64,000 nt of DNA from Candidatus Moraniibacteriota bacterium (GCA_026396275.1 JAPLXC010000002.1:74922-138921), one strand, 5' to 3'. Shown: positions 350-52,977, counted from the first letter of the stretch. The notes: generated by a model from the letters alone, not told the origin. Program-made: numbers and translations.

Positions 350-1855
350 TCAAAGCTTATACCTCCTTGCTCCCGCCAGTAACCCAGCTGCCAACCAGAA
401 CAAAATCTGCCCCGGCTGGATATCCCAGAGATAATGATCAAAAAGCATAATTACAATAAAAGCAAGAAACAAGACGCTGGCTGTCTGAGATAGTTCTCCG
501 CATAGCGTTCCACGTGGAACACTCTTGAGATGTCGCATTAATTTCCAAATAAACCATACGAATAAGCTCAGTCCGACTAATCCTAGCTCGTTTAATACTA
601 GCAGGAAAACATTATGCACCGGCTGAAATTGCCAAGTTTGGATGCCAGTGAATTCCGGGAAATTGAGAACGAATTGGCCCATTCCGACTCCCAAGAGAGG
701 ATGAGAAAGAAATGTTTCACGTGAAACATTGAGAAAGAACAATCTTTCCTCCCAGCTCTGGGTGAAGAAGGAGTTGATGTCCAGTTTTAAGATTAGAAAA
801 ACAAGGAAAACAATTGCTAGAAAAATAAACGCTCTTTCAAGCCACTTTCTTGGAATAAGATCGTCTTTTCCCTTATAAATAAGGTAAAAAAGAGCGATAA
901 ATAACCCAAGAATGGCTGACTTCGAGAAGGTTAGAATTAATGCCGCTATTTGGATAATAGTGGCTAAAAATAGTGTCATCCCGAGCTTGTCCGCCAAAGG
1001 CGGACGAGGCGAGAGATCTAACTTGATTTCACTCCGCTCAGAATGACAAATATCAATTTGTTCCACGCGGAACATTTTTCGGTACAAGAGTGTAAGAATT
1101 ATAGAAAAAATTAGGAATCCTCCCAAGATATTGGGATGTGGAAATAATCCATAAGCCCGAATGAATTTCTCCCCCCCCAGAATTATTTTGGCTACTCCTG
1201 GCAAGTACGGTGATATAATGCTTTCTTTAAGCCAAAATAATCCGACGGAGTGTTGAAGAACAAACTGCAAAATGGCCATGATTGACTGAAATAGAGCTAT
1301 AATTACTATTATCTTGAAAAAATTAAGGAGAGAGTTGGAGCTATTTTTGTTATTTATAATTGTTCCATGTGGAACAATTCTTAAGGCAATAAAAAAAAAG
1401 AGGAAATACATTTCTAGTAACTTAAAGGATCGAAATAAGGCAATGGTCTCATTTTGGGACCAAAAGATTGAGGTGAAAGACCAAATTACCAGTGCCAGAG
1501 GGATAAATAGCAATAATTGATTTAAAAATGTTCCACTTGCCCGAAATGTCCCGATATCCTTCGGGGCAGGCGGGCGTGGAACATTTATTTCAAAAGGCGA
1601 CGGGAGAGTGGAGTTTATTGACAATTTGCCATTTTTGTTGTATAATAGCAAAATTCCCCAACTTACCAAAGTAAAGAAAAGAAAAATATCGCTTAAATAA
1701 AGGTAAATTCCGGTATATTCGTTAAATTGGCCGTTAATCGGATAGAAAAGAATCACTTTCCTGACTGAAAGTGTAAGGGTAATTAAGAAACCATAAAAAA
1801 ACCAGATGTCTGGATTAGTCTTGAATTTAATCCAGATGAAGTTCAATAAATTCAT
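350..1855 (-). CDS. polytopic membrane protein, O-antigen ligase (Wzy_C)-like. It carries multiple in-frame palindromic insertions.
   Basis: 501 aa with roughly 10-12 hydrophobic segments in an O-antigen-ligase-like arrangement. Contains five GTTCCACGTGGAAC-type palindromes and one 75-bp TGTCATCC...GAATGACA element, all read through in frame. Confidence 0.45.
   Translation of the reverse strand: MNLLNFIWIKFKTNPDIWFFYGFLITLTLSVRKVILFYPINGQFNEYTGIYLYLSDIFLFFTLVSWGILLLYNKNGKLSINSTLPSPFEINVPRPPAPKDIGTFRASGTFLNQLLLFIPLALVIWSFTSIFWSQNETIALFRSFKLLEMYFLFFFIALRIVPHGTIINNKNSSNSLLNFFKIIVIIALFQSIMAILQFVLQHSVGLFWLKESIISPYLPGVAKIILGGEKFIRAYGLFPHPNILGGFLIFSIILTLLYRKMFRVEQIDICHSERSEIKLDLSPRPPLADKLGMTLFLATIIQIAALILTFSKSAILGLFIALFYLIYKGKDDLIPRKWLERAFIFLAIVFLVFLILKLDINSFFTQSWEERLFFLNVSRETFLSHPLLGVGMGQFVLNFPEFTGIQTWQFQPVHNVFLLVLNELGLVGLSLFVWFIWKLMRHLKSVPRGTLCGELSQTASVLFLAFIVIMLFDHYLWDIQPGQILFWLAAGLLAGARRYKL
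974..1048. mobile_element. MITE-like element (TGTCATYC...GRATGACA family), copy 1, inserted in-frame (75 bp = 25 codons) in the membrane protein gene
   Basis: Terminal inverted repeat tgtcatcc/gaatgaca. Internal hairpin ccgccaaaggcgg. Translated through as ...SERSEIKLDLSPRPPLADKLGMT.... Confidence 0.55.
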
Positions 1856-1979
1856 ATCACCGTTAATTATACTATATACTGGACGATATTGCCTAAAGGT
1901 GTATTATATTAATTAAAAGAAAAAATGTTTGCACGAATGTTTTTGACAGTTATTTAAAAAATAAAAAAGGAGGTGAAAA

Positions 1980-3083
1980 ATGTCATCTATTTTGGCACAA
2001 GCACAACCACTTAAAATTGGCGATATAATCGCCAATTTGCCAATAATCCAGGGTGGGATGGGTGTGGGAATTTCCTTGTCTGGTCTGGCATCGGCAGTTG
2101 CCAGTGAAGGAGGAATTGGCGTTATTGCTACCCCCGCGATCGGAATGAATGAACCTGATTTTTTCAAAAATTTCCTGGAAGCCAATGTCAGGGCGTTAAG
2201 AAAAGAGATTAGAAAAGCCAGAGAATTATCACAAGGAATCCTCGGTGTCAATATCATGGTGGCATTGACTAATTTCGCCGATCTGGTGAGAACCTCCATT
2301 GAGGAGGGTATAGATGTTATCTTTTCCGGAGCCGGGTTGCCGCTAAATCTGCCTGAATTTTTGCAGAACACTGCGAAAACAAAGCTGGTACCGATTGTTT
2401 CCTCTGGTAGGGCAATTGATATTATCATAAGAAGATGGTCAGAAAGATACAAATATCTTCCCGATGCTGTTGTTGTGGAGGGACCGCTGGCAGGAGGACA
2501 TCTCGGTTTCAAAGAACAGATGATTAGCAACTCTGAATATTCATTAGAAAAACTTGTCCCGGAAGTGATTCTGGCGATAAAGCCATATGAAAAAAAATAT
2601 GGCAGGCCTATTCCAGTAATCGCCGCCGGAGGAATCTACACAGGAGAAGATATTTATAGATTTTTCCAGTTGGGAGCTTCGGGTGTGCAGATGGCAACGC
2701 GATTTGTCACTACGCATGAATGTGATGCAAATATCAGGTTTAAAGAGGCGTATATAAATGCCAAGGAAAACGATATAACAATTATCAAAAGCCCCGTAGG
2801 GATGCCAGGAAGAGCAATTAGAAATAAATTTCTTGATGATGTCAGTGCGGGCAAAAAGAAACCTTTCAGATGCTTTTTCCACTGCCTGAAAACATGCGAA
2901 TTAGAAAAAAGTCCCTATTGCATTTCCTATGCTCTAATAAGTGCGAAAAAAGGAAACCTTAACCATGGTTTCGCCTTCTGCGGATCAAATGCATGGAAAG
3001 CGGAAAAAATTATCTCTGTTAAGGAAACATTTGAGACTCTCAAGGAAGAGTATCGAAATGCTTCCAGCGGAGAAGATTTGTAA
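1980..3083 (+). CDS. NAD(P)H-dependent flavin oxidoreductase, nitronate monooxygenase / FabK (enoyl-ACP reductase II) family
   Basis: N-terminal motif IIQGGMGVGIS and the overall TIM-barrel NMO-family pattern. Strong RBS AAGGAGGTG upstream. Confidence 0.65.
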   Translation: MSSILAQAQPLKIGDIIANLPIIQGGMGVGISLSGLASAVASEGGIGVIATPAIGMNEPDFFKNFLEANVRALRKEIRKARELSQGILGVNIMVALTNFADLVRTSIEEGIDVIFSGAGLPLNLPEFLQNTAKTKLVPIVSSGRAIDIIIRRWSERYKYLPDAVVVEGPLAGGHLGFKEQMISNSEYSLEKLVPEVILAIKPYEKKYGRPIPVIAAGGIYTGEDIYRFFQLGASGVQMATRFVTTHECDANIRFKEAYINAKENDITIIKSPVGMPGRAIRNKFLDDVSAGKKKPFRCFFHCLKTCELEKSPYCISYALISAKKGNLNHGFAFCGSNAWKAEKIISVKETFETLKEEYRNASSGEDL

Positions 3084-3190: not shown

Positions 3191-3263
3191 GGGCCGTTAG
3201 CTCAATTGGTAGAGCGCTTCCATGGCATGGAAGAGGCAACCGGTTCGAACCCGGTACGGTCCA
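3191..3263 (+). tRNA. tRNA-Ala(GGC)
   Basis: Cloverleaf folds by hand. Acceptor gggccgt/acggtcc has the G3:U70 Ala identity pair. Anticodon loop aTGGCat. T-loop ttcgaac. No encoded CCA. Confidence 0.8.
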
Positions 3264-3273
3264 CTCTTAAAAT

Positions 3274-3816
3274 ATGCTTAAAAAAATTTTATTACTTTCC
3301 GGCTGGATGACCGATTTAAAATTATACAGAAAATATGATGATCTTACTATCCAAGTAAGTAAATTAAGCAGCGAATCTGAAAAAATCGATTATATAATTG
3401 GTCTAAGTTTGGGTGCTCTGATAGCCTTGCGTGAATGGAATAAAAGTGGGAAGCTGATTTTGATTAATCCGCCTCTTCCAAAAAGAAATATTTTCGTATG
3501 GCTTGGTAAATGGATTAAATTTATTTTGTCAGAAGGTTTATTTTTAGAGCGCCAGAAGTTTACAAAAAATCCATTCAGGTTTATTACTGAAATTATAAAA
3601 TGTGTAAAACTGCTCTCTGTGGATTTTTCAAAGGTTTTAGATAATATACCAGAAGACAAGTTAGTTGTGATTAAAGGCAAAAATGATAATTATTTCTGTG
3701 ATCAGAAAGCCGTAGAATTTATGCGATCAAAAAATATTACGGTTATTGAAGTTGAAAACGCTGGACACAATTGGTGTGAAGAAATTGAAAAAACTGTAAA
3801 TAAATTAATAAATTAA
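3274..3816 (+). CDS. small alpha/beta-hydrolase-fold serine hydrolase (putative esterase)
   Basis: GxSxG nucleophile motif (GLSLG) and a C-terminal His (NAGHNW). About 180 aa. Confidence 0.45.
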   Translation: MLKKILLLSGWMTDLKLYRKYDDLTIQVSKLSSESEKIDYIIGLSLGALIALREWNKSGKLILINPPLPKRNIFVWLGKWIKFILSEGLFLERQKFTKNPFRFITEIIKCVKLLSVDFSKVLDNIPEDKLVVIKGKNDNYFCDQKAVEFMRSKNITVIEVENAGHNWCEEIEKTVNKLIN

Positions 3817-3823
3817 AACATTA

Positions 3824-3898
3824 GCCCCCATAGTTCAACGGATAGAACAGTCCCGTCCTAAGGGATAAATGCGTGTTCAATTCATGCTGGGGGCACCA
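3824..3898 (+). tRNA. tRNA-Arg(CCT), CCA encoded
   Basis: Acceptor gccccca/tgggggc. Anticodon loop gtCCTaa. T-arm gcgtg-ttcaatt-catgc. 3' end ACCA. Confidence 0.8.
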
Positions 3899-3907
3899 AA
3901 TAATTCT

Positions 3908-5464
3908 GTGATTAAAAAAATTCCAAAAGAAGTAATTGAAGTTTTGCGGAAACTTGAAGCCGCAGATTTTGAGGCCTATATCGTAGGCGGGTGCGTGCGG
4001 GATTTGATCGTGGAAAAGGAACCGAAAGATTGGGATGTAACGACTAATGCGAAACCAGAAGAAATTTTAAAATCATTTCCGGACAGTTTTTATGAAAATG
4101 AATTTGGAACAGTCGGCGTAAAAGTAAAGCCGTTTATTAAGAATGGAAACCCAGATCGCGATCATGATGTTATTGAAGTTACTACATACCGCATTGAATC
4201 AAAATATTCCGACAAGCGCCGGCCGGACAAAATCAGGTTTGCCAAGACGCTAAAGGAAGATTTGAGTCGAAGGGACTTTACGATTAACGCGATAGCGTTA
4301 AAAATAAAAAATCAAAATGCAAAAATCAAAAATACTGATTATGAAATTATCGATCCCTATGACGGGAAGAGTGATTTAAAAAATAGAACAATCCGCACGG
4401 TGGGCGATCCTAATGAGCGGTTTGACGAGGACGCGTTGCGGATGATGCGAGCAGTAAGGTTCCACGCGGAACTGGGCTATAAGATAGAAGAAAAAACCCT
4501 AAAAGCGATCAAGAAAAACGCCAAATATCTCAAACACATTACGCTGGAAAGAATTAAAGACGAACTGGCAAGAATTATTTTGTCTGATAGTCCTGCCCGC
4601 AATGCTGCGCCCGTCAGAAGCGTTGCATCTGCTACAGGCTGGCATAGCGTTGCAGGCGGGCCTGCTGAGGGAATTGACATGCTTCATCAAACAGGATTAT
4701 TAAATTATATTATTCCAGAACTTGAAAAAGGCGTGGGGATAAAACAAAATCGCCATCATATCTATACCATATATAAACACAGTATTTTATCCTTAAAACA
4801 TTGCCCTTCTGCCAAACTTGAAGTGCGATTGGCGGCGCTTCTTCACGATATTTCCAAGCCTCAAACCAAAAGAGGCGAAGGCGAATACGCAACTTTTTAT
4901 AACCATGATCATGTTGGAGCCAAAGTAGCCGAAAAAATTCTTACACGCCTGCGTTTTTCTAATGAAGTTATTCAAAAAGTAAAACTTCTCGTGGATAATC
5001 ACATGTTTTACTATAATCCCGATGAGGTCGGAGTAAGCTCTGTTAGAAAATTAATTCAAAAAGTTGGCTTGGAAAACATGAAAGATCTGATTGATCTTAG
5101 AATTTCCGACAGATTGGGCTCGGGCGTGCCGAAAGCCAAGCCGTATAAGCTTCGCCACTTGGAATATATGATTGAGAAAGTTTCTCAGGACGCCATTTCA
5201 GTGAAAATGTTGAAAATCAACGGCAATGATTTGATGAAAGAATTAAAACTAAAACCCGGACCGAAAATCGGAGCGATTCTTGACGTTTTGCTTTCTGAAG
5301 TGATTGAGGACGCTTCTAAAAATAATCGGGATTATTTGCTGTCCCGTGCCAAAGAGCTGGATAAAAAGGACTTGGAAAAGTTAAGAAACATGGCAAAGGT
5401 TAAGATCGAAGAGAAAAAAGAAGAGGAAGACAAGGAAATAAAAAATAAGTATTGGGTTAAATAG
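3908..5464 (+). CDS. cca: CCA-adding tRNA nucleotidyltransferase (poly(A) polymerase family) with HD domain
   Basis: Nucleotidyltransferase motif YIVGGCVRDLI; RAVRFHAELGY helix; HD motif LLHDISKP. The track ORF starts at 3869 inside tRNA-Arg, so the start is moved to an in-frame GTG at 3908; the start is uncertain. Contains a 69-bp GC-rich in-frame insert at 4593-4661. Confidence 0.8.
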   Translation: MIKKIPKEVIEVLRKLEAADFEAYIVGGCVRDLIVEKEPKDWDVTTNAKPEEILKSFPDSFYENEFGTVGVKVKPFIKNGNPDRDHDVIEVTTYRIESKYSDKRRPDKIRFAKTLKEDLSRRDFTINAIALKIKNQNAKIKNTDYEIIDPYDGKSDLKNRTIRTVGDPNERFDEDALRMMRAVRFHAELGYKIEEKTLKAIKKNAKYLKHITLERIKDELARIILSDSPARNAAPVRSVASATGWHSVAGGPAEGIDMLHQTGLLNYIIPELEKGVGIKQNRHHIYTIYKHSILSLKHCPSAKLEVRLAALLHDISKPQTKRGEGEYATFYNHDHVGAKVAEKILTRLRFSNEVIQKVKLLVDNHMFYYNPDEVGVSSVRKLIQKVGLENMKDLIDLRISDRLGSGVPKAKPYKLRHLEYMIEKVSQDAISVKMLKINGNDLMKELKLKPGPKIGAILDVLLSEVIEDASKNNRDYLLSRAKELDKKDLEKLRNMAKVKIEEKKEEEDKEIKNKYWVK

Positions 5465-5502
5465 TCGTGTAAATCGCAAAATTAAAACCTGTAAATAGTC
5501 GA

Positions 5503-5576
5503 CGGGGCATAGTATACCGGTAGTACGTACGATTCGGGTTCGTAAAGACTGGGTTCGATTCCCAGTGCCCCGACCA
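5503..5576 (+). tRNA. tRNA-Pro(CGG), CCA encoded
   Basis: Acceptor cggggca/tgccccg. Anticodon arm tacga-ttCGGgt-tcgta. T-arm ctggg-ttcgatt-cccag. ACCA at the end. Confidence 0.8.
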
Positions 5577-5625
5577 AATGCTTACAAAACAAATTATCCC
5601 TTTTACTATTTTAAAGTGAAAATTG

Positions 5626-5915
5626 AAATTAAAAATATTAGAGGCAATCCCGCGGATCTCTTGCGGCGGGCAGGATATATTTTTCAGAGCCGTAAAGAGG
5701 ATGAAATGGGCTTCGTCCGTCCATTGTCTTCTTCGGGCTACCCGAGGTTTCATATCTTCACCCGCGTTGTCGGAGGCAATCTGATAATCAATATTCACCT
5801 GGACCAGAAAAAAGAAACCTATGGAGAAGCAAAGCGCCATCACGGAGAATATGAGAGCGCGATTATTAAAGAGGAAGCAGAGCGAATTGCTTCGGTATTA
5901 AGACCGGTAGAATAA
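5626..5915 (+). CDS. hypothetical small protein
   Basis: The track ORF 5565..5915 overlaps tRNA-Pro, so the start was moved to an in-frame GTG at 5626. No family recognised. Confidence 0.3.
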
Positions 5916-5943
5916 AATTAGAATTTAGCGAGCTTTTAAATAA

Positions 5944-7662: not shown

Positions 7663-7681
7663 GCCGATGTGGTGAAACCCG

Positions 7682-7713
7682 CGCACCAGTCCGCCAGCTG
7701 GCGGACTGGTGCG
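7682..7713 (+). terminator. perfect 14-bp-stem hairpin directly after the TPR gene (terminator-like, no T-run)
   Basis: cgcaccagtccgcc-agct-ggcggactggtgcg. Confidence 0.4.
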
Positions 7714-7748
7714 GAGCAAGTTGGCAGATTTAACCCATTATAGCTGGT

Positions 7749-7831
7749 GGGCGAGTGGTGGAATGGTATACACGTAAGGTTTAGGACCTTATGGGAGTAA
7801 TCCCTTGTGGGTTCAAATCCCACCTCGCCCA
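7749..7831 (+). tRNA. tRNA-Leu(TAG)
   Basis: Acceptor gggcgag/ctcgccc. Anticodon arm taagg-ttTAGga-cctta. Long variable arm tgggagtaatccctt. T-arm gtggg-ttcaaat-cccac. Confidence 0.8.
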
Positions 7832-7994
7832 CAAAATAAAAGACGCATCCCGCCTAGGCGGGACTCCCGCAAGAAATTGAGAGTTCGAATCCCTGCCCGT
7901 TGATTTTTAGCGGGGTCTCCCAAGGCACGAAATAAGCTGGACTAATGCAAAAATTAAGTTATAATAATGAAATCAATATTTAAAAGAAATAAAA

Positions 7995-8387
7995 ATGGCA
8001 AACGATCAGGAAATTTTGGAAAAATATGAAAAAGAAAATCCCTGGGGCATGCTTACCAGCATTGATCTTAAAGAATGCAATCCGGAGATTATTCGCAACG
8101 CCGAAAAAATTAAGGACTTTGTCGCCAAACTCTGTGATTTAATCGGTATGAAACGCTTCGGAGAAATACAAGTGGTTCATTTCGGTGAGAACCAGCGGGT
8201 GGCCGGATTTTCAATGACGCAGCTGATTGAGACATCACTTATTTCCGGTCATTTTGCCAACCAGTCCAACGCGGTGTATCTGGATATTTTCAGCTGCGGG
8301 AAATATCCGCCTTACAAATCAGCGGAGTTTTGCAAGGATTTTTTTCAAGCCAAAAGCGCCAAAGTGACTGTTATTTTTCGCCACTAA
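7995..8387 (+). CDS. speH: S-adenosylmethionine decarboxylase proenzyme, archaeal/Bacillus type
   Basis: Processing-site region FSMTQLIETSLISGHF and YLDIFSCG, which match the SpeH pyruvoyl-enzyme pattern. 130 aa. Confidence 0.7.
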   Translation: MANDQEILEKYEKENPWGMLTSIDLKECNPEIIRNAEKIKDFVAKLCDLIGMKRFGEIQVVHFGENQRVAGFSMTQLIETSLISGHFANQSNAVYLDIFSCGKYPPYKSAEFCKDFFQAKSAKVTVIFRH

Positions 8388-8395
8388 AAACAGCA

Positions 8396-9361: not shown

Positions 9362-9432
9362 TATGAAAAAACTGGACAAAAAGGCAAAAAACTTTGTTTT
9401 TAATTTAAGTAAAAATTAACTATAATTACCAT

Positions 9433-9876: not shown

Positions 9877-10034
9877 TTTTTAGCGCCCAAGACGCAAAGC
9901 GGCATATTAACTGTTCACTTTACTAAGATTTGCGGATGTGGTGCCTGCCTGCTTGTCTCGCTAAAGCTATGGAGAAGCGGGCGGTCAGGGAACCCGGTAT
10001 ATTTACCCCGCATCAATTTCTGTGTTCTGAAGAA

Positions 10035-10118
10035 AGGGGACGTGGCGGAATTGGTATACGCGATAGGTTGAGGACCTATGCTCGCAAGAGCGTGAGGGTT
10101 CAAGTCCCTCCGTCCCCA
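10035..10118 (+). tRNA. tRNA-Leu(GAG)
   Basis: Acceptor ggggacg/cgtcccc. Anticodon arm atagg-ttGAGga-cctat. Long variable arm gctcgcaagagcgt. T-arm gaggg-ttcaagt-ccctc. Confidence 0.8.
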
Positions 10119-45700: not shown

Positions 45701-48700
45701 CCTCCACGCGGGCTTCCCAATCTTCAGTAGATGCCCTAAATGATATTTCCGCGTCTGATGTATGGACTTACGCTACTAGAACTTTGACTGGTGAAGTGGC
45801 GCTTACTTCCGATTCCAGAAAAGCGATCTGGGACACGGCCTGTTCTATCCTCAATACTTCCGGTAGCGTGGGAAAACTGGTTTGCGACAATTTAGACGCA
45901 GCCGTTTCTTCCCGTTCGACGCTTACGGCCGCTGATGTCTGGAGCAGCGCTACTCGAACAATTACCAATTTGGAAAATCCGGCCCTTTCGGCGATTGCCA
46001 ACAGCGTTTGGAGCAATGCCACTCGCGAACTGACTGCCTATGGCAACGACATCACGGCGCAGGATGTTTGGGATGTTTTAACTTCCAGTATGACTACTAT
46101 TGATTCTATCGGAGAGCTCCTAATAACCAATGTGGATGAGGAAATTTCCTCCCGGTCATCCCAAAGCAGTCTGGATGATGTTTCAACCAATGTCAGTGAT
46201 ATTGAATCCAATGTGGATGTGCCGGTTTCAACCCGTTCTTCGCAGGCCAGTCTTGACACCCATGAATCGTCCGAATCAACTTTTAGAACCAATACAACCA
46301 ATACCCTATCCGACATTTCCAGCGATGTTGGCGATATTTACATTAATGTAGTGGCTATTCAGAGCGATCTCTCTTCCATTGATACGAAAATTGATACTCT
46401 AACAACCACTCTCAACTCCGTTGACGCGAAAATTGACACTCTTGACACTAATATTGACAGTATAAAAACAACCGTGGAAGACACCAATATTAAAGTCAGC
46501 GCCATCCAAACGGTGACTAACAGTATTCTTAATAAGTGGGGCAGTTATTCTGCCGCGGATATCATCGGCTATGTTGACGCGCTGGAAGATTATGTGGGAA
46601 CGCCGGATGACGAAGCCAGCGCAGAAACTCTTTTTGGAAGGATAAAGGAAGTAAAGGAAGCGACGGGAAGCGGCGGGACGATTGATTTAATTTACGCCCA
46701 AGTCCAGGCCACGCATAACAAGCTTCTGGACGTTGAGTTGGAATTGGGATATAACGGAAAAACCACCAGCGCCTATGACGATATCACGGCTGTTAAAAAT
46801 TATGTGGACACGGTGGAGAACAGTCTGGCGACTTTGGATTCAAGAACTTCCGATATTTCTTCTTCAGTGAGTGATATTTCATCCGATCTCAAAGACGTGA
46901 CTGACAAGATTGGAAAAGTCAGTTCAGATTCCTTTTCCCAGCATTTCGAGATCAAGAAAACAGATATTGATTATCTCAAAAATAAAGTGATTGAGCTTAA
47001 AGCTATCGCTGAAATAGACCGCCAGCTGATCGAAAGAACGATCAGCGAGCCGATAGTCAAAGTGATTATGGAATGGGGGTCGGTAGTGATTAAATTTATT
47101 ATTGTCAATCCTTCTGATTCAACTGATCAGAAAATTCCTTTCAAGGCCTATCTTCCCAAAGAAGTGCGTCAGGAATATATAATAGATCTGAGCGGGCTTT
47201 CCTTAAATTACGACGCGACTACAGAGCAATACTATGTTACCGCGGACATCGCACTTAAAGCTGGCGAGTCGGTAACGCGCGCGGTGGAAATAAAAGACAT
47301 CTGGATAATTAGCTATGACGAAATTGATTCCCTAAGAAAGCAAGCCGAAGAAATGGCAGTGGGATTGACCGATACTTTCTACAACGCGCAAGCCATAACC
47401 TTAAAGACTGATATTAATACCCGGCTGGATAAGGTTGCAAGAAAGCAAAAAGATAATAATGCCACTCCGCAAGACCATATCCTGGCTTATCGGGAAAATC
47501 AGGAGGAATTGAAAGCAATTAATGAAAATTTAAAAGGAATGAAGGATTTAGTTTTGAATTCCGGCACCGGGAAAAACTTCCTAGCCTCTATCGGGGGCAT
47601 TCAGACCTTTGCCACCTGGGGAATAGTCCTAATTTTAATTTTTGGCATGGGAGCTCTCGGGTTTTTCTACTACGCTCTCTGGAGGAAAAAAATCGTGTCC
47701 GATGGAAAGTCGGAAACCGGCGGGCTGCCAGCCGGCCAGAAAACGGATGATATGAATCCTGTCCAACCAGTAGTCACTCCTGGCGCTCCGAATCAAAATA
47801 TCGAGTTGCCGACACCTTCGCCGCTCGCTCTTCCGGGATTCAATTTTTCCTGGGCCAAAAAGATTGTTTTGGGGTTAGTTATCCTGTCCAAGGATATCTC
47901 GAGCCTTATATATAGCTTGTTCAAAAAAGTTGCGGCCAAGGTGGCTTCTCTTCCCAAGAAGGTCTTATTAGTCATAGGCATATTAGTCATCGTCACGGCT
48001 GGCACCCTGGCTTTCGTAAAATACCATGATTACCAGAAAGAAAAATCAGAAAAAGAAAAAGAGATTGTTTTAAGCGTTTCTCAAAGCCAGGTTCCGGATG
48101 AAGCGGATGAAAAGAAGAAAAAAGTCCTGGAATTAGTCGCTGAAATCGATAAAAAAGCCGGAGAAAAAGCGGAGATGAACAAAAAAATAGATGAGATAAT
48201 GAAAAAAGATGAGAATCCAGAGGATGCTTCGCAGGAGGAAAAAATAGAAAACAAATCCGAAGCTTCCAAATCCAGCCGGCTGACCGTAAAAGACACGCCT
48301 ACCGGCTGGCTGAATGTTCGTGAGAGCGCTTCAACCGGCGGGAATGTTATTGGCAAGGTTTATCCGAAAGAAAGTTATAATTATATCGAAAATCAAGATA
48401 ACTGGTATAGGATAGTTCTAAAAGATAAAAAAGAAGGCTGGGTTAACGGTGAATATGTTCAATTGGAAGAAACGGTTGGCGGCGCAACTACGGAAAATAA
48501 TTCAGGGGAGACTCCATCTGTCAAGGCAAAAGAAAATGAACTAACTATCAAAGATACGCCCACGGGCTGGCTGAATGTTAGAGAACAGCCCTCTGCTAGC
48601 GGCGCACTGGTAGCTAAAATTTATCCGGGAGAAAAGTATATTTATTTGGAATCCGAAAACGGCTGGTACAAAATAATTCTCAAAGATAAAAAAGAAGGCT

Positions 48701-49200
48701 GGGTTATCGGAGAGTATGTGAAAACAAATAGTCCGGCTTTGTTAGGCAGCAATGACAATCAGGAAAAAGTCGAGGGAGCGAGCATCGGCGATACCGGAGA
48801 GGCGGCAATCAGACAGACAAATATGGAGTTTTACGGTGTTTACGAAAATCCGTCTTATACGGAAAAAATAATCGCTCGGGCTTATCCGGGAGAAATCTAT
48901 TCTTTTTCAGAAATTCTGGGCGGCTGGTACAAAATAATCCTCAAAGATAAAAAAGAAGGCTGGATCCTGGGCGAGTATATTGAGCCGGCCGGCAATTTGG
49001 AAAACCGGGAATTCGTGAAAATTATTCCCAATGACAGCTCTTATGTTAATATCAGGGAGATTCCCTCTCAATCAGGGAAAGTTGTCAAGAAAATTTATGT
49101 TAGCAACCAGTTTGAAAAACTTGAAGAAAAAGATGGTTGGGTTAAAATAGAACTTTTGGACGGAAGTTTTGGGTGGGTATCAAACCAATTCGCTAAATAA
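36742..49200 (+). CDS. giant (4152-aa) membrane-anchored surface protein. Order: N-terminal TM; Thr/Ser/Gly/Asn-rich beta regions; two LamG/ConA-like lectin domains; PbH1 parallel beta-helix repeats; three ~140-aa DVW-motif super-repeats; a coiled-coil; two TM helices; four C-terminal SH3b domains.
   Basis: A continuous 12.46-kb ORF. TM at aa 27-49. LamG-like regions ...WYWIKANVTG...IADFDDVSV and ...DGSIDEFAIFD. Beta-helix NSEFYNNGVTGAG...ADNIFSINTNGIRLYGNSFFTMNDNIFEGH. Tandem repeats AADVW..R.LT. TM helices at about aa 3614 and 3745. SH3b copies TGWLNVRE...WY(R/K)I(V/I)LKDKKEGWV. Confidence 0.8.
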   Translation: MLKEKCEKIYGKIKNWAIIVRDSSRRHFPLVLAIIFLTPAFILLFLFVNSQLHKQSSYAATFTGKVKVSKQTTTLSTSGDWYTSMAHSGDGVNGDAESGTFNPIHPGQGAGTEPGAGGIAMGHVAMGATTTYAAAQFIGFKPSATGNLDGVQLVFENLTSTNLSNVDLVVEFVRFPSATYSGGWTNYVTGTQGAYTYPSDTQVLRRTVWQFNQELSGENAAPGQFGRATFDFRFDPPVAVTTGGGAGDHYGIRIINMGASTPVFGTWAQAPQSNGFPSINGTIRTIGFNDLDTTNAPTVTMPVVLGGNTVLTTGAMVAANSVPGIGLPTVRRTENEHWTATYSSANGNWTVAGSVSGTQTNKLTTSTNGGTGASWLNDSAVYTTLTSDITGTTNKLCVDSITGFAANQYIDVWDSDTASAQFTILSVNSSDGSCPLSGPSITTTANLTNTNNYTQSKNATVARTTWKQRIIQGAIQVFTQDMPSTTKICVADSSRFSAPTAGTANNIVVWDNNTTTINTNRVVSTSQADGSCTSNNSITISTAITAGTYTTAQSAYVAEYSAHLSNSAAPSNGAVLRWTTFNHPQNPTNSTLLARTTSVNLAYAKSQSPATSSTNYPYLSNRHIFFVAYGDADTTAPADGDIVIVGNGKSDPDSGDSSNLTSDINWATKESHVVTIDRSWDAPMAYSGTNAAAVGDGAGSRANFAAWSQNGGWVSALVTPSSQLGIDNSTNKHYRITIPGKIVVDSDASVALGKSGAAIPESSGHDIYFDTVSPAASTLLTVDSAATTTLTVASTTNFMPGDTIVLDDNNSVPITRIIAAVENSTTITLTAAAVTGYTVAQSAFIAKGPTTELPTGSDRRAGIYTMTGLNGASTPAQSNTRTGRVALYADGSEDFRTSKSDLAVDVDGNIDTGYLGNNSTDAGNTWVDVEDDVVGNWQPLDQVAVAGGTNQLADNNYSSTELGGTDDANQMPVWTGATTKVDAGAGGRNALPTPNMEVAEIGTIPMTNIYNSDYNGGSPLYSSNYNNSSSLTIFNDGANTEVNDAVYFGDQGSNMPYALEFNIGTAMVASADYVWEYYKSGVGWTEFTPRDAYLYQTRTGVTLPLSVDTVNNSLAITLAEGGTVFGLDQIVMIDDNDSDPIYRRLGTSAPTATTLTFSEPVPSGYTVAQGATVTRLNGGQWQSMDPTGIFTSGTGRRIISWTPTNLNGTPAKTTVNGVSAYWVRARISSFTSWTTSPTNQTTPVGMGGIERMSSGVFNVSSGVQEAKVSEVTAGSSFDPNETYILEYGNSPSWTQVLPIVPSAPYTWHINSTGMLSQNTATADFHTANGDLSWGNYTVTAKVQMRTANDATSRKIGVVLRNSLDGNGYGALIEKTSSQQRVGLYPMALGAEGTVFANTTKAFSENSWYWIKANVTGTGASTVLSAKFWADGSGEPGSWDVTYTTTAGQGLWNTGKIGLFADAMIADFDDVSVDNGSVVFSDSFTSTGTWKLKGSINGDLGTITPGTPFTSNYINFTLKHKGGWNGTINPEIGDKIYISPTSTRSYKGLSGTGSSAITTSDTNTVYENVDFEWNPGSSNYTVTGSATGAMGTATPGSAYTATGGKIGLTIPSGSPTATKFGNRMLLLQDNLRRNTGSWVGNNGLGSAALVWPSYTLTSSAITPRYNIEGVSGTATARQNGTIDFWFKANYSGSPSSATHPKGMYLVDYANQGNSERLFIRHTNDGYLEAAVFGGATQNTLLRKSFSATAGQWYHFRLAWDETLNTKRAWLDETAFTSGEGQASTVGTRGANAGIIRIGNTWTYDAPFDGSIDEFAIFDDAIDTSDACDWGVSVGIPIPSAAWTNGQTAGCDDADSNIGTNIFRASFDQTMNPQEGSIMADYAFGNPAMIFTNGADTGNERIRIVTYPQRTRVWVDNTGEKYTPSARIKFGSGYEENATLATLAGWSHNYTYHHKAVRQSSSSPTYSPVLNLKRNTHIWSVEPITQNGATMGAPINAGMGYGMGTIGLSGLGTINFSDVSMENQYTNFAIVTNPFTFLAAKPAQTISNSVFYNFYDRAYTIASKTQGTNYVGAYFVTTHFAAANIGSGYNASLSQNVGIDGSIFMGNRNAYVTVPPVAANGAASFFSGRLYTVQNSEFYNNGVTGAGTSGALNFSSGVAKVTIADNIFSINTNGIRLYGNSFFTMNDNIFEGHVADDVTTLGANYGAGIRVAQTSSSVAIVDTDSIFGRGLWNEADVGLPPNTGTFEAESLIQFTGEGSQLRSPILFGTADYDNMPRVADHYLGSTIPGTDIRGTHSTNEKNIINATTFGYMRTTGAGLPDTLLRTSGGYGWRLEPINADIGLDYTAKLVGVADKPLAATGYLRINSNYGTTNLPTVTLSGLGMTGANLTWTAEPTADEWQQFVVSGTPTESALAELKISTKLDYVVSDSGTSEIVSNATGNYLPALVEDVDKSWTPNQWVGYKFKDANGKVFDIVKNTSQILYLKGTVVPHLLSTTFAALTPGDYVIYNEPYVYLDDVSVLSGTVDTGTLDFHSSGQPVSPWLATGLTAEGVWNAQFSTFSDSAGSFGQLLGDALVAQYADVSDLSPTTTEFDTSLSSTTDDFYLNGAIIFTEGQNKGAVRRISDYTGASKTITVDPALSFAPADEDRFAILAATASSGGSGGGATAAEIWSYAIRRLTDSTLSGGGTLATQSYLDTMKADIIAEIDENEALISGLNDISAADVWSYANRSITDPDAIWEYALTSIGETGSVGKLIKDNLDATISSRGTSDLTAADVWTNATRTLTDYSTDAISLAVWQNATRTLTAYGNDITAADVWNVLSSSLTTVGSIGKQLAENVDVAVSSRASQASLDALNDISAADVWSYSNRTITDPDNIWEYALTSIGETGSVGKLIKDNLDATISSRGTSDLTAADVWLATERTLTSNANFNDPTTAQIATAVWGEANRTLTSYGNDITAADVWSILSSSLTTVGSIGKQLAENVDVATSTRASQSSVDALNDISASDVWTYATRTLTGEVALTSDSRKAIWDTACSILNTSGSVGKLVCDNLDAAVSSRSTLTAADVWSSATRTITNLENPALSAIANSVWSNATRELTAYGNDITAQDVWDVLTSSMTTIDSIGELLITNVDEEISSRSSQSSLDDVSTNVSDIESNVDVPVSTRSSQASLDTHESSESTFRTNTTNTLSDISSDVGDIYINVVAIQSDLSSIDTKIDTLTTTLNSVDAKIDTLDTNIDSIKTTVEDTNIKVSAIQTVTNSILNKWGSYSAADIIGYVDALEDYVGTPDDEASAETLFGRIKEVKEATGSGGTIDLIYAQVQATHNKLLDVELELGYNGKTTSAYDDITAVKNYVDTVENSLATLDSRTSDISSSVSDISSDLKDVTDKIGKVSSDSFSQHFEIKKTDIDYLKNKVIELKAIAEIDRQLIERTISEPIVKVIMEWGSVVIKFIIVNPSDSTDQKIPFKAYLPKEVRQEYIIDLSGLSLNYDATTEQYYVTADIALKAGESVTRAVEIKDIWIISYDEIDSLRKQAEEMAVGLTDTFYNAQAITLKTDINTRLDKVARKQKDNNATPQDHILAYRENQEELKAINENLKGMKDLVLNSGTGKNFLASIGGIQTFATWGIVLILIFGMGALGFFYYALWRKKIVSDGKSETGGLPAGQKTDDMNPVQPVVTPGAPNQNIELPTPSPLALPGFNFSWAKKIVLGLVILSKDISSLIYSLFKKVAAKVASLPKKVLLVIGILVIVTAGTLAFVKYHDYQKEKSEKEKEIVLSVSQSQVPDEADEKKKKVLELVAEIDKKAGEKAEMNKKIDEIMKKDENPEDASQEEKIENKSEASKSSRLTVKDTPTGWLNVRESASTGGNVIGKVYPKESYNYIENQDNWYRIVLKDKKEGWVNGEYVQLEETVGGATTENNSGETPSVKAKENELTIKDTPTGWLNVREQPSASGALVAKIYPGEKYIYLESENGWYKIILKDKKEGWVIGEYVKTNSPALLGSNDNQEKVEGASIGDTGEAAIRQTNMEFYGVYENPSYTEKIIARAYPGEIYSFSEILGGWYKIILKDKKEGWILGEYIEPAGNLENREFVKIIPNDSSYVNIREIPSQSGKVVKKIYVSNQFEKLEEKDGWVKIELLDGSFGWVSNQFAK
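44870..46130 (+). repeat. three tandem near-identical repeats of about 420 bp inside the giant gene. Some stretches over 100 bp are 100% identical between copies.
   Basis: For example 44958-45070 and 45378-45490 are identical (cctcacttccatcggagaaaccggatcggttggaaaattaatcaaggacaatcttgatgccactatctccagccggggaaccagcgacttgacggcggccgatgtttgg). Confidence 0.85.
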
Positions 49201-49216
49201 TTATAAATATAAATTT

Positions 49217-50188
49217 ATGAAAAAGTTTTTTATTTTGCATCGGAAGCTTTGTTTCATTGTATTTTTTTTGATTATTTTTATGCCGGCTTCGGGTGTGGCT
49301 TTTCTGAATTCCTTAAAAATTTACAGTATGGAGAAAATTAATATTCAAGAACAGTCTATGTTTTTAGCAAAATTAACAGCAGTTCTTCAGGAACAAACTA
49401 TCAACGAAACTCGGGAATTTCTTTCCTTTTTGTCCAAGCTTCCGCAGTTGCAAGATTCTGAGTCTTCTAAATGCGATGAAATTTTGGCTAAGCTTTTAAA
49501 GCAGTATAAAGAATATACGAATATCACTTTGCTCGGGGCAGACGGAAATCTCATTTGCAGCGGACTTGAAAACGACCAATCAATCAATGTCGCTTATCAG
49601 CCCTATTTCCAGAGAATGCTCGAAGAACGGGATTTTATAACGGGGAAATATGTGGCTGGAACAATAAGTAATAAACCAATCATTCCTTTTATCCAGCCAA
49701 TTTTTAATTCTCAAGGTGAAATTAAAAGTGCTGTCGTGGCTTTTCGAGATTTATCGTGGCTTTATGATCTCAACAGCAAAATTTCTTTGCCTTACGGAAC
49801 ATCACTTTTGATTTTTGACGAAAACGGAGTAGTTTTAGATTGCTTTTCCGAAGAAAAAGATTGCGTTGGGAAAAATCTTAAAGGTAAATCTTTAGTGCGA
49901 AAGGCTATAGAAAATGGAAATGAAGGCGCGGTGTACGCCGAAGGATTAGATGAAAATGAAAAAATTTACCTGTTTATTTCTACTTCTCCCGACTCTTCTC
50001 AAGATAAAATTTATATAGCAGTGGGGAGAGAGGATGTATTGCCTTTTTCAGTTCTTTTTTCCAATCTTTTATTAAACTTTATTTTGCTTTTAGCCGTAGC
50101 CATTTTAGCCTGGTTGGTGGCTAAAAAAGAGTGTTCTTCCTGCAGTTATTATAATCCCCCAAGGGATGAAAAAGATTTGCATAGCTGA
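49217..50188 (+). CDS. Cache-like extracellular sensor domain protein with a C-terminal TM and no output domain
   Basis: Signal/TM, then a double-Cache-like fold (...AYQPYFQRMLEERDFITGKYVAGTISNKPIIPFIQPIF...), then TM LLLNFILLLAVAILAWLVA and an 18-aa tail. The start was moved from the track's 49169 to ATG 49217 to avoid overlap with the giant gene. Confidence 0.45.
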   Translation: MKKFFILHRKLCFIVFFLIIFMPASGVAFLNSLKIYSMEKINIQEQSMFLAKLTAVLQEQTINETREFLSFLSKLPQLQDSESSKCDEILAKLLKQYKEYTNITLLGADGNLICSGLENDQSINVAYQPYFQRMLEERDFITGKYVAGTISNKPIIPFIQPIFNSQGEIKSAVVAFRDLSWLYDLNSKISLPYGTSLLIFDENGVVLDCFSEEKDCVGKNLKGKSLVRKAIENGNEGAVYAEGLDENEKIYLFISTSPDSSQDKIYIAVGREDVLPFSVLFSNLLLNFILLLAVAILAWLVAKKECSSCSYYNPPRDEKDLHS

Positions 50189-50219
50189 TTTGTTTGCCTC
50201 GGTCAATTAGGAACTCATA

Positions 50220-50675
50220 TTATTTGAGTAAAAACATAACGGATTGATTATAGAAATAATGGATGAGCATCGCCAGAAGTGCGGCTGGAAAAATAAGGCG
50301 GCGGTTTTTTTGAGCAGAAAGCAGAATAATCAGAATAGTGAATATATGCAAGATTGAAGCCAAGAAAAATCTTTCAATAAAGATAGCGGGCGATCCATAA
50401 AGGATTGAATTGGAAAGGTAAAAAAAATTTTCTGAAAGAGCAAAGAAAAATCCCAGAAAAATAGTCAGCTTTATTTGAAATGATTTCCCGGGAATTGTTA
50501 GGATTAAAAAAACCATAGTGGCCTTAAACATTTCTTCTAGAATGTAAGGATAAGGAATAATTTTTTCAATAGGCAATAAAATAACTGGCGCGATTAAAGC
50601 TAAAATCGGCAACAGAAAAAAAAGATAAGAGACATCAGTTTTATTTTGATTATTATTTTTGAGAAATGGATTCAT
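50220..50675 (-). CDS. hypothetical integral membrane protein
   Basis: 151 aa with about 4 TM segments. Confidence 0.3.
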   Translation of the reverse strand: MNPFLKNNNQNKTDVSYLFFLLPILALIAPVILLPIEKIIPYPYILEEMFKATMVFLILTIPGKSFQIKLTIFLGFFFALSENFFYLSNSILYGSPAIFIERFFLASILHIFTILIILLSAQKNRRLIFPAALLAMLIHYFYNQSVMFLLK

Positions 50676-51588
50676 AAATAATTTTGGATAAGTTCGCTAT
50701 AAGCTCTTTAGCTTTGGGCACTTCCATGTCACGGGTCATTATGCAAATAAAATAAGTACTTTTGGGATGATAGACTATTCCACAATCAGAAAGTCCATCT
50801 GGTCTCTCGCCGTACTTATGCGCTATCTGAACTTCATAAGGAATGCCGGCAGAAAGCAGGTTTTCCATTTTTGTGTCAGTGGTAATTTCAAGCGCTTTAT
50901 CGGATAATTCCGGAGAAAGATAGGTCGAAAAATAGAGACTCTTGAAAAACCGCGTGTAACCGCGCGGTGTTACCAGTGAATCATTGGTTTGGGCGTAGGG
51001 ATTAGGGATACCGACATGAGCGAAAACCGAGTTTAACTCTGCGTCAGTCAGTTGTCTTTTTAAAACTTCCTTAGCTGTATTATCTGATGCAAGAATCATT
51101 TCTTCAATAAAATCCCAGACCGACATTTTATATCCGGTGCCTTTTTTGTATAATTCGCCGGAATTTTTATCCAAATCGTCCGGAGTAATTTCTAAAATAG
51201 TATTAAGAGATAATTCATTAAGATCAATTTGTCTTAAGACAGCTAGCATAATAGGAATTTTTAAAAGACTGGCCGGATTAAATCCTTCCCTTTCATTTAT
51301 TCCCAGCCAAGCGCCTGTTCGGCTGTCTTGCAAAAAAATCCCAATGTTTTTTTGAGCATCAAAATTGTTAATTTCTTGCTCAAGTTGGGGTTTTAAGCCA
51401 TTAAAATGCAAAATCGCATTTCCTTCTTGAATATTGGAATCTATAAACTGTTTTTGGTTATCACTTATCATTTTAAACAGTTTGGTTGTGTTTTTCGCGG
51501 GTTCTTCTTTGAAAGATAGCTTGAAAACAAAAAAGACATTAATTAGCAATGAAACGGTCAAAAAAATATAGATGATTTTTTTACGCAT
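50653..51588 (-). CDS. class A beta-lactamase-like / PBP-like serine hydrolase (secreted)
   Basis: N-terminal TM/signal. SxxK (ASLLK), SDN and an H-KYG (KTG-like) motif in the expected order. Confidence 0.55.
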   Translation of the reverse strand: MRKKIIYIFLTVSLLINVFFVFKLSFKEEPAKNTTKLFKMISDNQKQFIDSNIQEGNAILHFNGLKPQLEQEINNFDAQKNIGIFLQDSRTGAWLGINEREGFNPASLLKIPIMLAVLRQIDLNELSLNTILEITPDDLDKNSGELYKKGTGYKMSVWDFIEEMILASDNTAKEVLKRQLTDAELNSVFAHVGIPNPYAQTNDSLVTPRGYTRFFKSLYFSTYLSPELSDKALEITTDTKMENLLSAGIPYEVQIAHKYGERPDGLSDCGIVYHPKSTYFICIMTRDMEVPKAKELIANLSKIIYESISQK

Positions 51589-51978
51589 TTTTTTGGATAA
51601 TTAACATTAGTGACAGTATAGCATTTTTTTAAAATGCACTCTACAAAAAGCTGGGCATGTATCCCATCCTAAAAATCCGTGGTTTTGATTGCCAAACAAC
51701 TAAAAGGTATTTATATTTGTCTAAGTGTGGACGCACGGGTGGGATATTGGGGCAAACACGCTTTCCTTTTTATATAAAGTCGTAGCATTGCTTCCGCCGT
51801 TCCGATTTCTTAGAACGCAAATTTCTTCAAAATTCGCGGGCGGAAGCTAAGCTAAATTTTGGAAAAAAGTTCAAGCGCAGCACTTCCTATTTCAACCGCC
51901 TGGCGCTTTTCACAAAAAGCCAAACGCTAGAAGCTTTTCTGTCAAAGCTTAGCTTCGACAGAACTTTCCTTCCTGAGG

Positions 51979-52977
51979 TCAAGCCCTGAGAAGTTTTGTT
52001 CTTCTTCTCCTCGCATGAAACGCCTGATGCACTTCTTTGAGCTGTTGATTGGTTACATGGGTGTAAATTTGCGTTGTCGTAATAGAAGAATGCCCCAGCA
52101 TCGCCTGGACGCTTCTGATATCGGCACCGCTGGCCAGAAGATCAGTCGCAAAACTGTGGCGCAAAGTGTGGGGATGAACGTCTTTAACAAGACCGGCTTT
52201 GGCAGCGTAAAACTTCACAATTCTTTGGACGGAGCGGGGAGTAATTCTTAGAGAAGAGTCGCTTTTTTTATTGTCATTCCGGACTTGATCCGGAATCTCT
52301 TTAGATCCTGAATCAAGTTCAGGATGACATTTGCGATGGATTTTTTTGGCGATTCGCACGAATAGCGCCGGATCAATATCCATTCTTTTATTTAAATATT
52401 TTTCCAATGCCTTTTTAGCAGTGTCGGAGACAAAAACAATCCGGATTTTTCCTCCTTTACCCCGAACGCTGAATTCCTGTTTGGCCAAATTTATCTGGTC
52501 GCGATTGATGTTCACCAGTTCCGAAACGCGAAGTCCGGCTGAAAAAAGAAGTTCCAAAATCGCCCGGTCGCGCAGCGTTTTCAAATCATCTCCGGAAGCA
52601 CTTTCCAGGAGGCGGTCCAGTTCATCGGCTTCCAGAAACTCAACGGCCTGAACCGGATTTTTTCCCACTTCTATTTTTTCCGGCTGAAGCGCCTCAATGT
52701 CGCGTTTGGCCAGATATTTCAAAAAGTTGCGAAGAGCAATGACATGGTAATTCTGGGTGATTTTTTTAAGTTCTTTACCCTTCTTGTCTTGGTAGCGGTT
52801 AAGACGCAAACGGTATTTTCTCACCAGATCATCCGTGATTTCCCCGGGGCTGGTAACTCCGGCCCAATTCAAAAACCGCTCGAGATAATGCCGGTAGTTT
52901 TCAATCGTTTTAGGGGACCGGCCGCGCTCAATTTCGAGATATTCCAGGAAATCTTTGAGAAGACCGTTTAAATCCAT
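51979..52977 (-). CDS. xerC: tyrosine site-specific recombinase, XerC/XerD-like, carrying an in-frame MITE insertion
   Basis: Core-binding N-domain; catalytic R...HPHTLRHSFAT...LGHSSITTTQIYTHV (Tyr). An extra segment ...CHPELDSGSKEIPDQVRNDNKKSDS... corresponds to MITE copy 4. Confidence 0.8.
   Translation of the reverse strand: MDLNGLLKDFLEYLEIERGRSPKTIENYRHYLERFLNWAGVTSPGEITDDLVRKYRLRLNRYQDKKGKELKKITQNYHVIALRNFLKYLAKRDIEALQPEKIEVGKNPVQAVEFLEADELDRLLESASGDDLKTLRDRAILELLFSAGLRVSELVNINRDQINLAKQEFSVRGKGGKIRIVFVSDTAKKALEKYLNKRMDIDPALFVRIAKKIHRKCHPELDSGSKEIPDQVRNDNKKSDSSLRITPRSVQRIVKFYAAKAGLVKDVHPHTLRHSFATDLLASGADIRSVQAMLGHSSITTTQIYTHVTNQQLKEVHQAFHARRRRTKLLRA
52272..52329. mobile_element. MITE-like element (TGTCATYC...GRATGACA family), copy 4, in-frame inside xerC/D
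   Basis: tgtcattccggacttgatccggaatc...cctgaatcaagttcaggatgaca. Confidence 0.55.

Follow-up and report, generated by a model that had tools for sequence, protein, structure and literature searches.

Structural analysis of the repeat units, together with the comparison of orthologous loci, suggests that four small palindromic elements in a 64,000-nucleotide stretch of DNA from Candidatus Moraniibacteriota bacterium (GCA_026396275.1, JAPLXC010000002.1:74922-138921; the whole stretch is referred to here as the window) are probably head-to-head dimers of (C/T)GTC-tagged repetitive extragenic palindromic (REP) units, in the TGTC variant of the tag. The elements, each bounded by TGTCATYC and GRATGACA, lie at 974-1048, 12288-12348, 13576-13633 and 52272-52329, and would represent small, non-coding repeats that resemble REPINs (REP doublets forming hairpins) and have been gained and lost at individual sites in this Moranbacteria lineage. 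An earlier note on this DNA had described four such copies, one in an O-antigen-ligase-like gene, one intergenic, one across the start codon of a uracil-DNA glycosylase (UDG) gene and one in a xerC/D recombinase gene, as a family of MITE-like elements (MITE, miniature inverted-repeat transposable element); the copies, their coordinates and their gene contexts were all borne out. Both the observation and, with some refinements, its interpretation hold: the elements are REP dimers, not MITEs, and are largely of a known kind. Beyond the literature searched are the presence of the family in genomes of the Candidate Phyla Radiation (CPR), the occupation of the same sites by different palindrome families, and the finding that the copy in the Xer gene is the most conserved DNA of that gene.

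Anatomy, family and distribution of the dimers

The window contains 11 occurrences of the motif TGTCATYC where 3.2 ± 2.0 are expected, a count that none of 100 shuffles reached, and the inward-facing pairs of the four elements account for 8 of these 11 occurrences. Three copies are clean (12288-12348, 13576-13633 and 52272-52329): two units of 25-26 nt are inverted about a spacer of 6-10 nt, and each unit consists of TGTC, a perfect 8-bp stem (AT-YC-NNNN), a loop of 4 or 5 nt and a tail. Their six units have no stem mismatch, where shuffles expect 2.7 such matches; five have loops of 5 nt (CTTGA, CTTGT or CCTGA) and one a loop of 4 nt (GAAG), and the tails are CTA in four cases and CTC and CCA in one each. 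All eight unit termini of the four elements are TGTC, with the tags pointing outward. All four copies are head-to-head dimers, the three clean ones being heterodimers, and no solo unit was found in the 64-kb window.

The 61-bp intergenic heterodimer (12288-12348, unstranded), in the 3' untranslated region of a gene encoding a 3D-domain protein, joins a left unit on the plus strand (12288-12313; TGTC + ATTCCGGG / CTTGA / CCCGGAAT + C, with an 8-bp stem and a 5-nt loop) to a right unit on the minus strand (12324-12348; TGTC + ATTCCCGC / GAAG / GCGGGAAT + C, with an 8-bp stem and a 4-nt loop, of the CGTC-1 type discussed below). The other two clean heterodimers measure 58 bp each: the junction copy (13576-13633, unstranded) consists of units at 13576-13601 and 13608-13633 around the spacer TAATTA, and the Xer copy (52272-52329, minus strand) of units at 52272-52297 and 52304-52329 around TCTTTA. 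Folding z-scores of the elements range from -2.9 to -4.9 as DNA and from -3.6 to -4.7 as RNA, the latter being a check that the earlier note had proposed; the RNA of 52272-52329 folds into a single 26-bp interrupted hairpin and the DNA into two hairpins.

The terminal repeats are common to all four copies; the statement that they also share two internal hairpins holds for the three clean ones and fails for the fourth. The element at 974-1048 (minus strand, reading CHSERSEIKLDLSPRPPLADKLGMT) is a decayed copy with an extra nested hairpin: a head-to-head dimer of GAGCGAAGCGA-type units, both degenerate, that departs from a 58-nt dimer model of this unit type by a 19-nt nested insertion, a 2-nt deletion and 3 mismatches. 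The nested secondary hairpin, GTCCGCC-AAA-GGCGGAC (989-1005, unstranded), sits in the loop region of the left unit. Its GTCCGCC...GGCGGAC core is shared by a perfect 32-nt palindrome at 7682-7713 (CGCACCAGTCCGCCAG/CTGGCGGACTGGTGCG), between a TPR/PMT_2 open reading frame (ORF) and a tRNA gene, and the two hairpins may represent a third small hairpin family.

With respect to family assignment, the closest published counterpart is the CGTC-tagged REP superfamily (Di Nocera, De Gregorio and Rocco, 2013, BMC Genomics 14:522; PMC3733652). According to that article, the CGTC tag is often changed to TGTC (the variants being TGTC and CCTC), the stems comprise 8-9 bp and have A-T complementarity in their first two positions, the loop has 4 nt in family 1 and 5 nt in families 2-4, and the short tails are mostly CCA. 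Head-to-head dimers predominate there and heterodimers are common, most copies lie just 3' of ORFs and some are intragenic, with dimers coding for 20-30 residues, and no dedicated transposase is known; CGTC-1 is equated with Neisseria dRS3 and with Rickettsia palindromic element (RPE) family RPE-6 of R. conorii, and CGTC-4 with RPE-4; and the superfamily is placed, as of 2013, in five phyla that do not include Patescibacteria/CPR.

The unit types in the window fit CGTC-1 (4-nt loop) and CGTC-2 (5-nt loop CTTGW), with one decayed GAGCGAAGCGA-type dimer in addition. They have in common with these two families the 5' tag, the AT-led 8-bp stem, the 4- or 5-nt loop, the head-to-head (hetero)dimers, the location of copies just 3' of ORFs, the presence of some intragenic copies and, in the sequence analysed, the lack of an associated transposase, but differ in their tails, which are mostly CTA instead of CCA, and in their host phylum, Patescibacteria/CPR; the GAGCGAAGCGA-type unit of 974-1048 is left without assignment to a numbered family. 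Relatedness to catalogued members was compared at the peptide level only: the right unit of 12288-12348 encodes VIPAKAGI in one frame, as do two R. conorii CGTC-1 entries (supplement of PMC3733652), CHPELVSGS (13576-13633) and CHPELDSGS (52272-52329) match RHSELVSGS of Sulfurovum CGTC-2, and IPDQVRND resembles TPDQVRGD of S. alaskensis CGTC-1. The change from R in RHSELVSGS to C in the CHPEL peptides arises because the tag has changed from CGTC to TGTC. Moreover, the right unit of the intergenic dimer (ATTCCCGCGAAGGCGGGAAT) fits ATTCCC-N8-GGGAAT, which we take to be the form of dRS3 in the Neisseria genome literature. The dRS3 units of Neisseria occur in large clusters, on either side of longer RS blocks, and serve as integration sites for filamentous prophages; in this the elements of the window differ from the dRS3/NIME (neisserial intergenic mosaic element) system, as no role as prophage integration sites was seen for them.

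The earlier note had likened the in-frame copies to Rickettsia palindromic elements, and this likeness can be taken beyond analogy to a family relationship because RPE-4 and RPE-6 belong to the same CGTC/TGTC REP superfamily, the link to the RPE families being solely the equivalences of RPE-6 with CGTC-1 and RPE-4 with CGTC-4 in the published catalogue (PMC3733652). In both cases palindromic repeats lie in frame in functional genes and add a peptide loop, and the unit of RPE-6 is of the same type as the right half of 12288-12348; the differences are that the hosts of RPEs are obligate intracellular alphaproteobacteria, and that the dimers described here measure 58-75 bp, with half of the local copies intergenic. 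RPE-1, reportedly the classic in-frame case from the work of Ogata and colleagues in 2000, is said to measure ~100-150 bp and to be unrelated in sequence to the present elements.

No Rfam family covers the elements, either in the window at the gathering threshold or in four element-rich loci at E<=0.1; weak matches to plant miRNA families were set aside as merely long hairpins, and readings as CRISPR, integron attC sites or inteins were rejected on anatomy. Searches of literature full text with the DNA strings of the elements returned unrelated primer matches only, and nothing relevant on palindromic, RPE-like or intragenic repeats in CPR was found in the literature searched.

A scan for the dimer pattern across one genome per species yielded at least 120 matching stretches, with ~0.1 chance matches expected from the information content of the pattern. 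The matches listed come from Nitrospirota, Chloroflexota, Bacteroidota, Firmicutes, Gemmatimonadota, Armatimonadota, Bdellovibrionota, Alpha-, Beta- and Gammaproteobacteria, Elusimicrobia, Ignavibacteria, Melainabacteria and several CPR groups. The dimer family is neither specific to CPR nor a CPR invention, and since its insertion in frame had already been published, the novelty implied in the earlier note is overstated. Among the matches listed, two unit types dominate, namely hairpins of the form ATYCNNNN-CTTGW-NNNNGRAT and ATCCTGAGCGAAGCGAAGGAT, a unit with a GCGAAGC mini-hairpin and tandem G.A mismatches; a GRATCCA tail is common in the cross-phylum sample. For 61 distinct units from many genomes, 88% of stem cells are paired compared with 13-51% when the alignment is slid, and there are 96 double-change cells compared with 38 ± 6 in shuffles (0 of 500), which shows that the stems covary.

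About 10% of 135 dimers among the matches listed lie inside long ORFs, with credible intragenic cases in a MiaB-like radical-SAM enzyme that has two inserts (L038), a further Wzy_C protein (L076), the locus L005 and an APH/EcKL-type kinase with three dimers (P0241). There were 7 matches in 2.9 million viral contigs, which provides no evidence that phages carry the family. The 246 kb around UDG orthologs hold only 4 such elements, so the family has expanded locally in the lineage of the window, where the density is 4 copies per 64 kb compared with ~1 per 60 kb in related contigs. A cluster of at least 10 TGTC heterodimers in ~2 kb, with a conserved 18-19 nt spacer, adjoins a 1147-aa ORF in an alphaproteobacterial metagenome-assembled genome (CANLAL010000037.1; L082:4370-6280); it is the only clustered arrangement among the matches listed.

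Insertion into protein loops and a gene junction

The minus-strand gene at 51979-52977 encodes a XerC/D-type tyrosine recombinase (Phage_integrase) and holds the element at 52272-52329, which reads on the minus strand as CHPELDSGSKEIPDQVRND plus one base. The earlier note had set an alignment of orthologs beforehand as its refuting test, and the outcome favoured insertion; the segment CHPELDSGS...IPDQVRND was found only in the query and its three closest orthologs (4 of 120; P0002, P0003 and P0004, with 88%, 83% and 77% identity), and the UDG junction was found empty in two syntenic relatives. The modal loop at the insertion site in Xer comprises 12-15 residues (73 of 117 orthologs), and a solved XerC-like structure, 4a8e, has 2 residues there versus 30 in the query. 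R150, H270, R273, H296 and Y305, which we take to be the catalytic set of tyrosine recombinases, are invariant across 48 orthologs, and the gene therefore looks functional as judged by its sequence. An AlphaFold2 model built with 48 orthologs (mean predicted local distance difference test score, pLDDT, 69; predicted template modelling score 0.44) assigns pLDDT below 50 to the insert (residues 212-241), and likewise to part of the catalytic domain, which hints at a disordered loop. A HMMER search of 1.8 billion representatives with the 30-residue insert returned 9 matches, mostly short spurious ORFs, the insert being too short a query for a census of host proteins.

The other host gene (350-1855, minus strand) encodes an O-antigen-ligase-like membrane protein (Pfam Wzy_C) and holds the element at 974-1048. 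Its segment is missing from most of 70 orthologs and falls in a hypervariable loop just ahead of the Wzy_C domain in their alignment; in two of these proteins (P0152 and P0127) the same loop is occupied by other dimers of the TGTC type. According to the ortholog alignments, both the Xer and the Wzy segment are insertions that are specific to a lineage and situated in hypervariable loops. Another palindromic repeat, TGTTCCACGTGGAACA, has 5 copies in the window against 0.23 expected, four of them in the Wzy ORF (506-521, 713-728, 1059-1074 and 1361-1376) and one at 4458-4473; the peptides of its three frames, MFHVEQ, VPRGT and CSTWN, take up this same hypervariable loop of Wzy in dozens of orthologs from Moranbacteria.

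The alternative of ancestral protein sequence in these segments, with DNA that is palindromic by chance, draws on the intact reading frames and on nothing more, and its probability is close to nil. It is refuted by the Xer and Wzy ortholog alignments and by the solved Xer homologs, which do not have the segment; the segment is confined to 4 of 120 Xer orthologs and to few Wzy orthologs, the same DNA is intergenic elsewhere in the window, and the same peptide recurs in unrelated proteins such as the APH/EcKL-type kinase P0241.

As for the intergenic copies, the element at 12288-12348 begins 10 nt past the stop codon of the 3D-domain ORF (12275-12277), with a terminator-like hairpin and two tRNA genes downstream of it. 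The element at 13576-13633 fills the junction between a Metallophos_2 gene, from whose stop codon (13636-13638) it lies 2 nt away, and a family 4-type UDG gene (12928-13581, minus strand) to which it donates the start codon: as the earlier note had it, the element overlaps this codon, the ATG at 13581-13579 being part of the terminus ATGACA (Met-Thr). Solved family-4 UDG structures align from query residue 6-8, and hence no downstream start fits. In the syntenic relatives L138 and L155 the junction consists of a stop codon, 6-10 nt and an ATG; in L137 it holds a TGTC dimer of another type (GAGCG), which likewise provides the start as ATGACA, and in L154 a CGTCATTGCGAGG-type element. Furthermore, a relative (L001, GCA_040961635.1) has two further copies, at L001:2957-3013 and L001:11325-11387, at sites whose syntenic positions in the window do not have them, and carries 3 copies in 14 kb compared with 4 in 64 kb in the window; intergenic alignments with L001, L002 and L003 are too diverged to give base-exact boundaries of empty sites.

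Different palindrome families occupy the same few sites across lineages, namely the Xer loop, the Wzy loop and the UDG junction. In addition to the TGTC dimer, the Xer loop contains a perfect 15-bp-stem hairpin EAELLKNRSSAS in L126 (322-1263), GC-rich double hairpins PSPRQLAGRGWREAPGE in L127 (3001-3969) and CAGCCCAAGGCTG repeats (QPKADLSPRL) in L128 (10001-10981). Either the compact genome offers few permissive sites, or hairpins attract hairpins.

The insertions leave the reading frames of both host genes open. The Wzy copy comprises exactly 75 bp, or 25 codons, as claimed, and of its six frames only the one in use is open. The Xer insert was said to add about 20 residues and leave the frame unbroken; the gene is indeed in frame, and the 58-bp copy, not being a multiple of 3, contributes 19 codons and one base, so that a compensating change is needed in the gene. 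The copy abuts a run of seven A residues, a plausible site for a compensating slip. One frame of the terminus GRATGACA has a TGA, and TAA or TAG is frequent in the spacer; the spacer of the coding Xer copy reads AAAGAG versus the stop-bearing AATTAG in the intergenic copy at 13576-13633, and frame 0 (TGT CAT, Cys-His) is used in 8 of 9 credible intragenic cases. The best reading of the in-frame state is that of a survivorship filter, by which only stop-free, frame-restoring copies survive within genes.

Mode of spread and the question of host function

The inverted ends that suggested the label MITE-like are real, and bacterial MITEs (Correia/NEMIS, Nezha, RUP; PMC10969869) are likewise small, non-coding, bounded by inverted repeats, multi-copy and, in some cases, in frame. 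MITEs, however, are derived from insertion sequences (ISs) and have target-site duplications, neither of which was seen here: no target-site duplication was detected in the flanks of 141 dimers, in which the distribution of direct repeats equals that of the permuted control, and at 123 loci no parent IS was found, as no long-range pair of units encloses a coding region. That the elements are classical MITEs, deletion derivatives of DDE-type ISs with TGT...ACA terminal inverted repeats that move by cut-and-paste, is accordingly very improbable, even though TGTCAT...ATGACA resembles the TG...CA ends of transposons and 58-75 bp falls at the low end of MITE size. Nor do these loci hold any longer element that has a transposase between such ends; moreover, what had been taken for terminal inverted repeats are tags plus stems of two REP hairpins in inverted orientation, units that fit the REP definition and also occur tail-to-tail and solo at the 123 loci.

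A further parallel is provided by REPIN-RAYT systems (Bertels and Rainey, 2011; PMC3116915), in which two inverted REP hairpins also form the replicating unit, identity within a family is high and target-site duplication is absent; the tag is GTAG in those systems and TGTC here, and no gene for a REP-associated tyrosine transposase (RAYT) was found in the available sequence. GTAG REPs and REPINs are processed by RAYT (TnpA-REP) enzymes of the HUH Y1 type (PMC3116915, PMC3479197, PMC8266576). By analogy with that system, mobilisation of the TGTC dimers in trans as single-stranded DNA hairpins appears most likely. The enzyme acting on the elements would be a nuclease or transposase that recognises structure and tag, either of the HUH/RAYT type or functionally analogous, and encoded elsewhere in the genome; by such a route, target-site duplications would not arise and copies would tend to land within or beside hairpins already present. 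In a gene-dense genome, copies would be tolerated in the first nucleotides after a stop codon, at gene junctions and in surface or inter-helix loops of proteins; within genes, the survivors would be those that are stop-free in the host frame and restore it, and the ~20-25 encoded residues would be passengers in a variable loop, not ancestral protein. We know of no demonstration that RAYTs are associated with CGTC REPs. Among the 141 dimers, position -1 is a pyrimidine in 74% and position +1 a purine in 70%, and palindromic extensions occur in ~10% of copies. Insertions nested in hairpin loops, at 989-1005 within the element 974-1048, at L002:2328-2423 and in L003 near 19300, would fit attack on single-stranded loops.

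Several observations weigh against the view that the elements are mobile TGTC REP dimers. A phmmer search with E. coli RayT of stop-to-stop ORFs in the window and the 123 loci (~0.9 Mb) found no RAYT/Y1 homolog, and no transposase Pfam family, Y1_Tnp included, was found in ~45 ORFs of the window. Exact stems recur across phyla, which would be odd if structure alone is recognised. The census of the source genome covers 64 kb only, which bears on copy number and strand bias. Furthermore, the copies in the Xer genes of the window, L001 and L125 are identical at 57/58, 57/58 and 56/58 positions in genes that are themselves 73-78% identical, and in these three lineages the copy and ~21 nt downstream form the most conserved stretch of the gene. 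Such conservation is not predicted by neutral decay of an old selfish insertion; candidate explanations are a sequence under selection, gene conversion or a recombination tract.

This conservation lends weight to the possibility, which we consider real although clearly the lesser one, that the elements are host-functional hairpins under selection at each locus, whether as stabilisers of mRNA 3' ends, as attenuators, in translational coupling or as sites bound by a conserved protein, with mobility at most historical. The RNA folding scores would agree with such roles, non-orthologous copies in the window and L001 have identical stems and differ only in loops and spacers, and the positions of 12288-12348 (10 nt after a stop codon) and 13576-13633 (2 nt after a stop codon and over the next start) fit published REP positions. 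Host function does not, however, sit easily with the fact that close relatives differ in presence or absence and in palindrome family at the same sites, with the visible decay of 974-1048, with the placement of two copies out of four in loops of proteins, where a function of the RNA or DNA is not evident, or with the lack of a matching Rfam family. Selection for host function is compatible with the mobilisation of REP dimers proposed above, and the two are not exclusive.

Conceivably, spread and homogenisation could also proceed with no transposase at all, through template switching or slippage at hairpins as DNA is replicated and through gene conversion or homologous recombination, so that resident hairpins are replaced in situ by family members. 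The absence of target-site duplications, the high identity between copies, the nesting of hairpins in hairpin loops, the different palindrome families at the same sites in different lineages, and the fact that CGTC REPs have no known transposase (PMC3733652) would all be in keeping with this scheme. It is nevertheless unlikely, given that gene conversion requires flanking homology, which 58-bp elements barely offer, and that the scheme leaves unexplained both the first arrival at junctions that are empty in L138 and L155 and the conserved 21-nt flank of the Xer copy.

We further entertain, as a speculation with a modest chance of being correct, that TGTC-REP dimers in CPR are under nucleotide-level constraint even in coding regions, that they are targeted to pre-existing hairpins, and that a few protein loops and gene junctions, serially re-occupied by different palindrome families, might act as a repeat-driven generator of loop diversity.

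Neighbouring genes and implications of the TGTC dimers

In the relatives L001, L002 and L003, the genes for UvrD and Xer are adjacent; in the window, a ~16-kb block (36165-51978) separates them. This block contains a 4152-aa ORF (36742-49200), whose Pfam match is four C-terminal SH3_3 domains alone, along with dCache, PrsW-like and beta-lactamase-family genes. The UvrD helicase of L001 (L001:4336-7437, 1033 aa) carries an intein (Pfam Intein_splicing), which is missing from its ortholog in the window (33930-36164, 744 aa). CPR-type genes for type IV secretion or pili are present at 21998-25706 and 58567-60818, with five T4SS_pilin ORFs, PrgI and a TraG P-loop ATPase, and a 23S_rRNA_IVP-family protein is listed with these regions. 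The window also contains 14 tRNA genes spread over 3191-19738, most densely at 10036-12618, and tandem arrays of the heptamer AAATCAA(A/T), with 32 matches (<=2 mismatches) against 1.8 expected. These arrays lie at 16706-16812, 23079-23201, 26255-26324 and 52986-53129 and, within ORFs, at 4302-4330, 8579-8607 and 31968-31996; the intergenic ones often form inverted pairs 50-100 nt apart.

The present analysis extends the CGTC/TGTC REP superfamily, and with it the in-frame decoration of proteins known from RPEs, to the Candidate Phyla Radiation, and shows dimers of this architecture in many more phyla than the five listed in the 2013 catalogue (PMC3733652). Peptides such as CHPELDSGS and VIPAKAGI abound in gene calls and protein databases, and their recognition avoids spurious ORFs and false 'domains'. 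Three aspects are worth following: the setting in CPR, the hot spots of occupation and the conserved copy within a coding region. The extreme conservation of a copy that lies in a loop, together with the repeated use of the same sites, hints that these repeats are selected or targeted and not merely tolerated. Moreover, very small CPR genomes with a recent expansion of the family offer a tractable place to seek the enzyme that mobilises CGTC REPs and, should the reading in terms of constraint and targeting be true, comparison of element abundance with gene content across CPR, with ~1000 genes each, could expose that enzyme.

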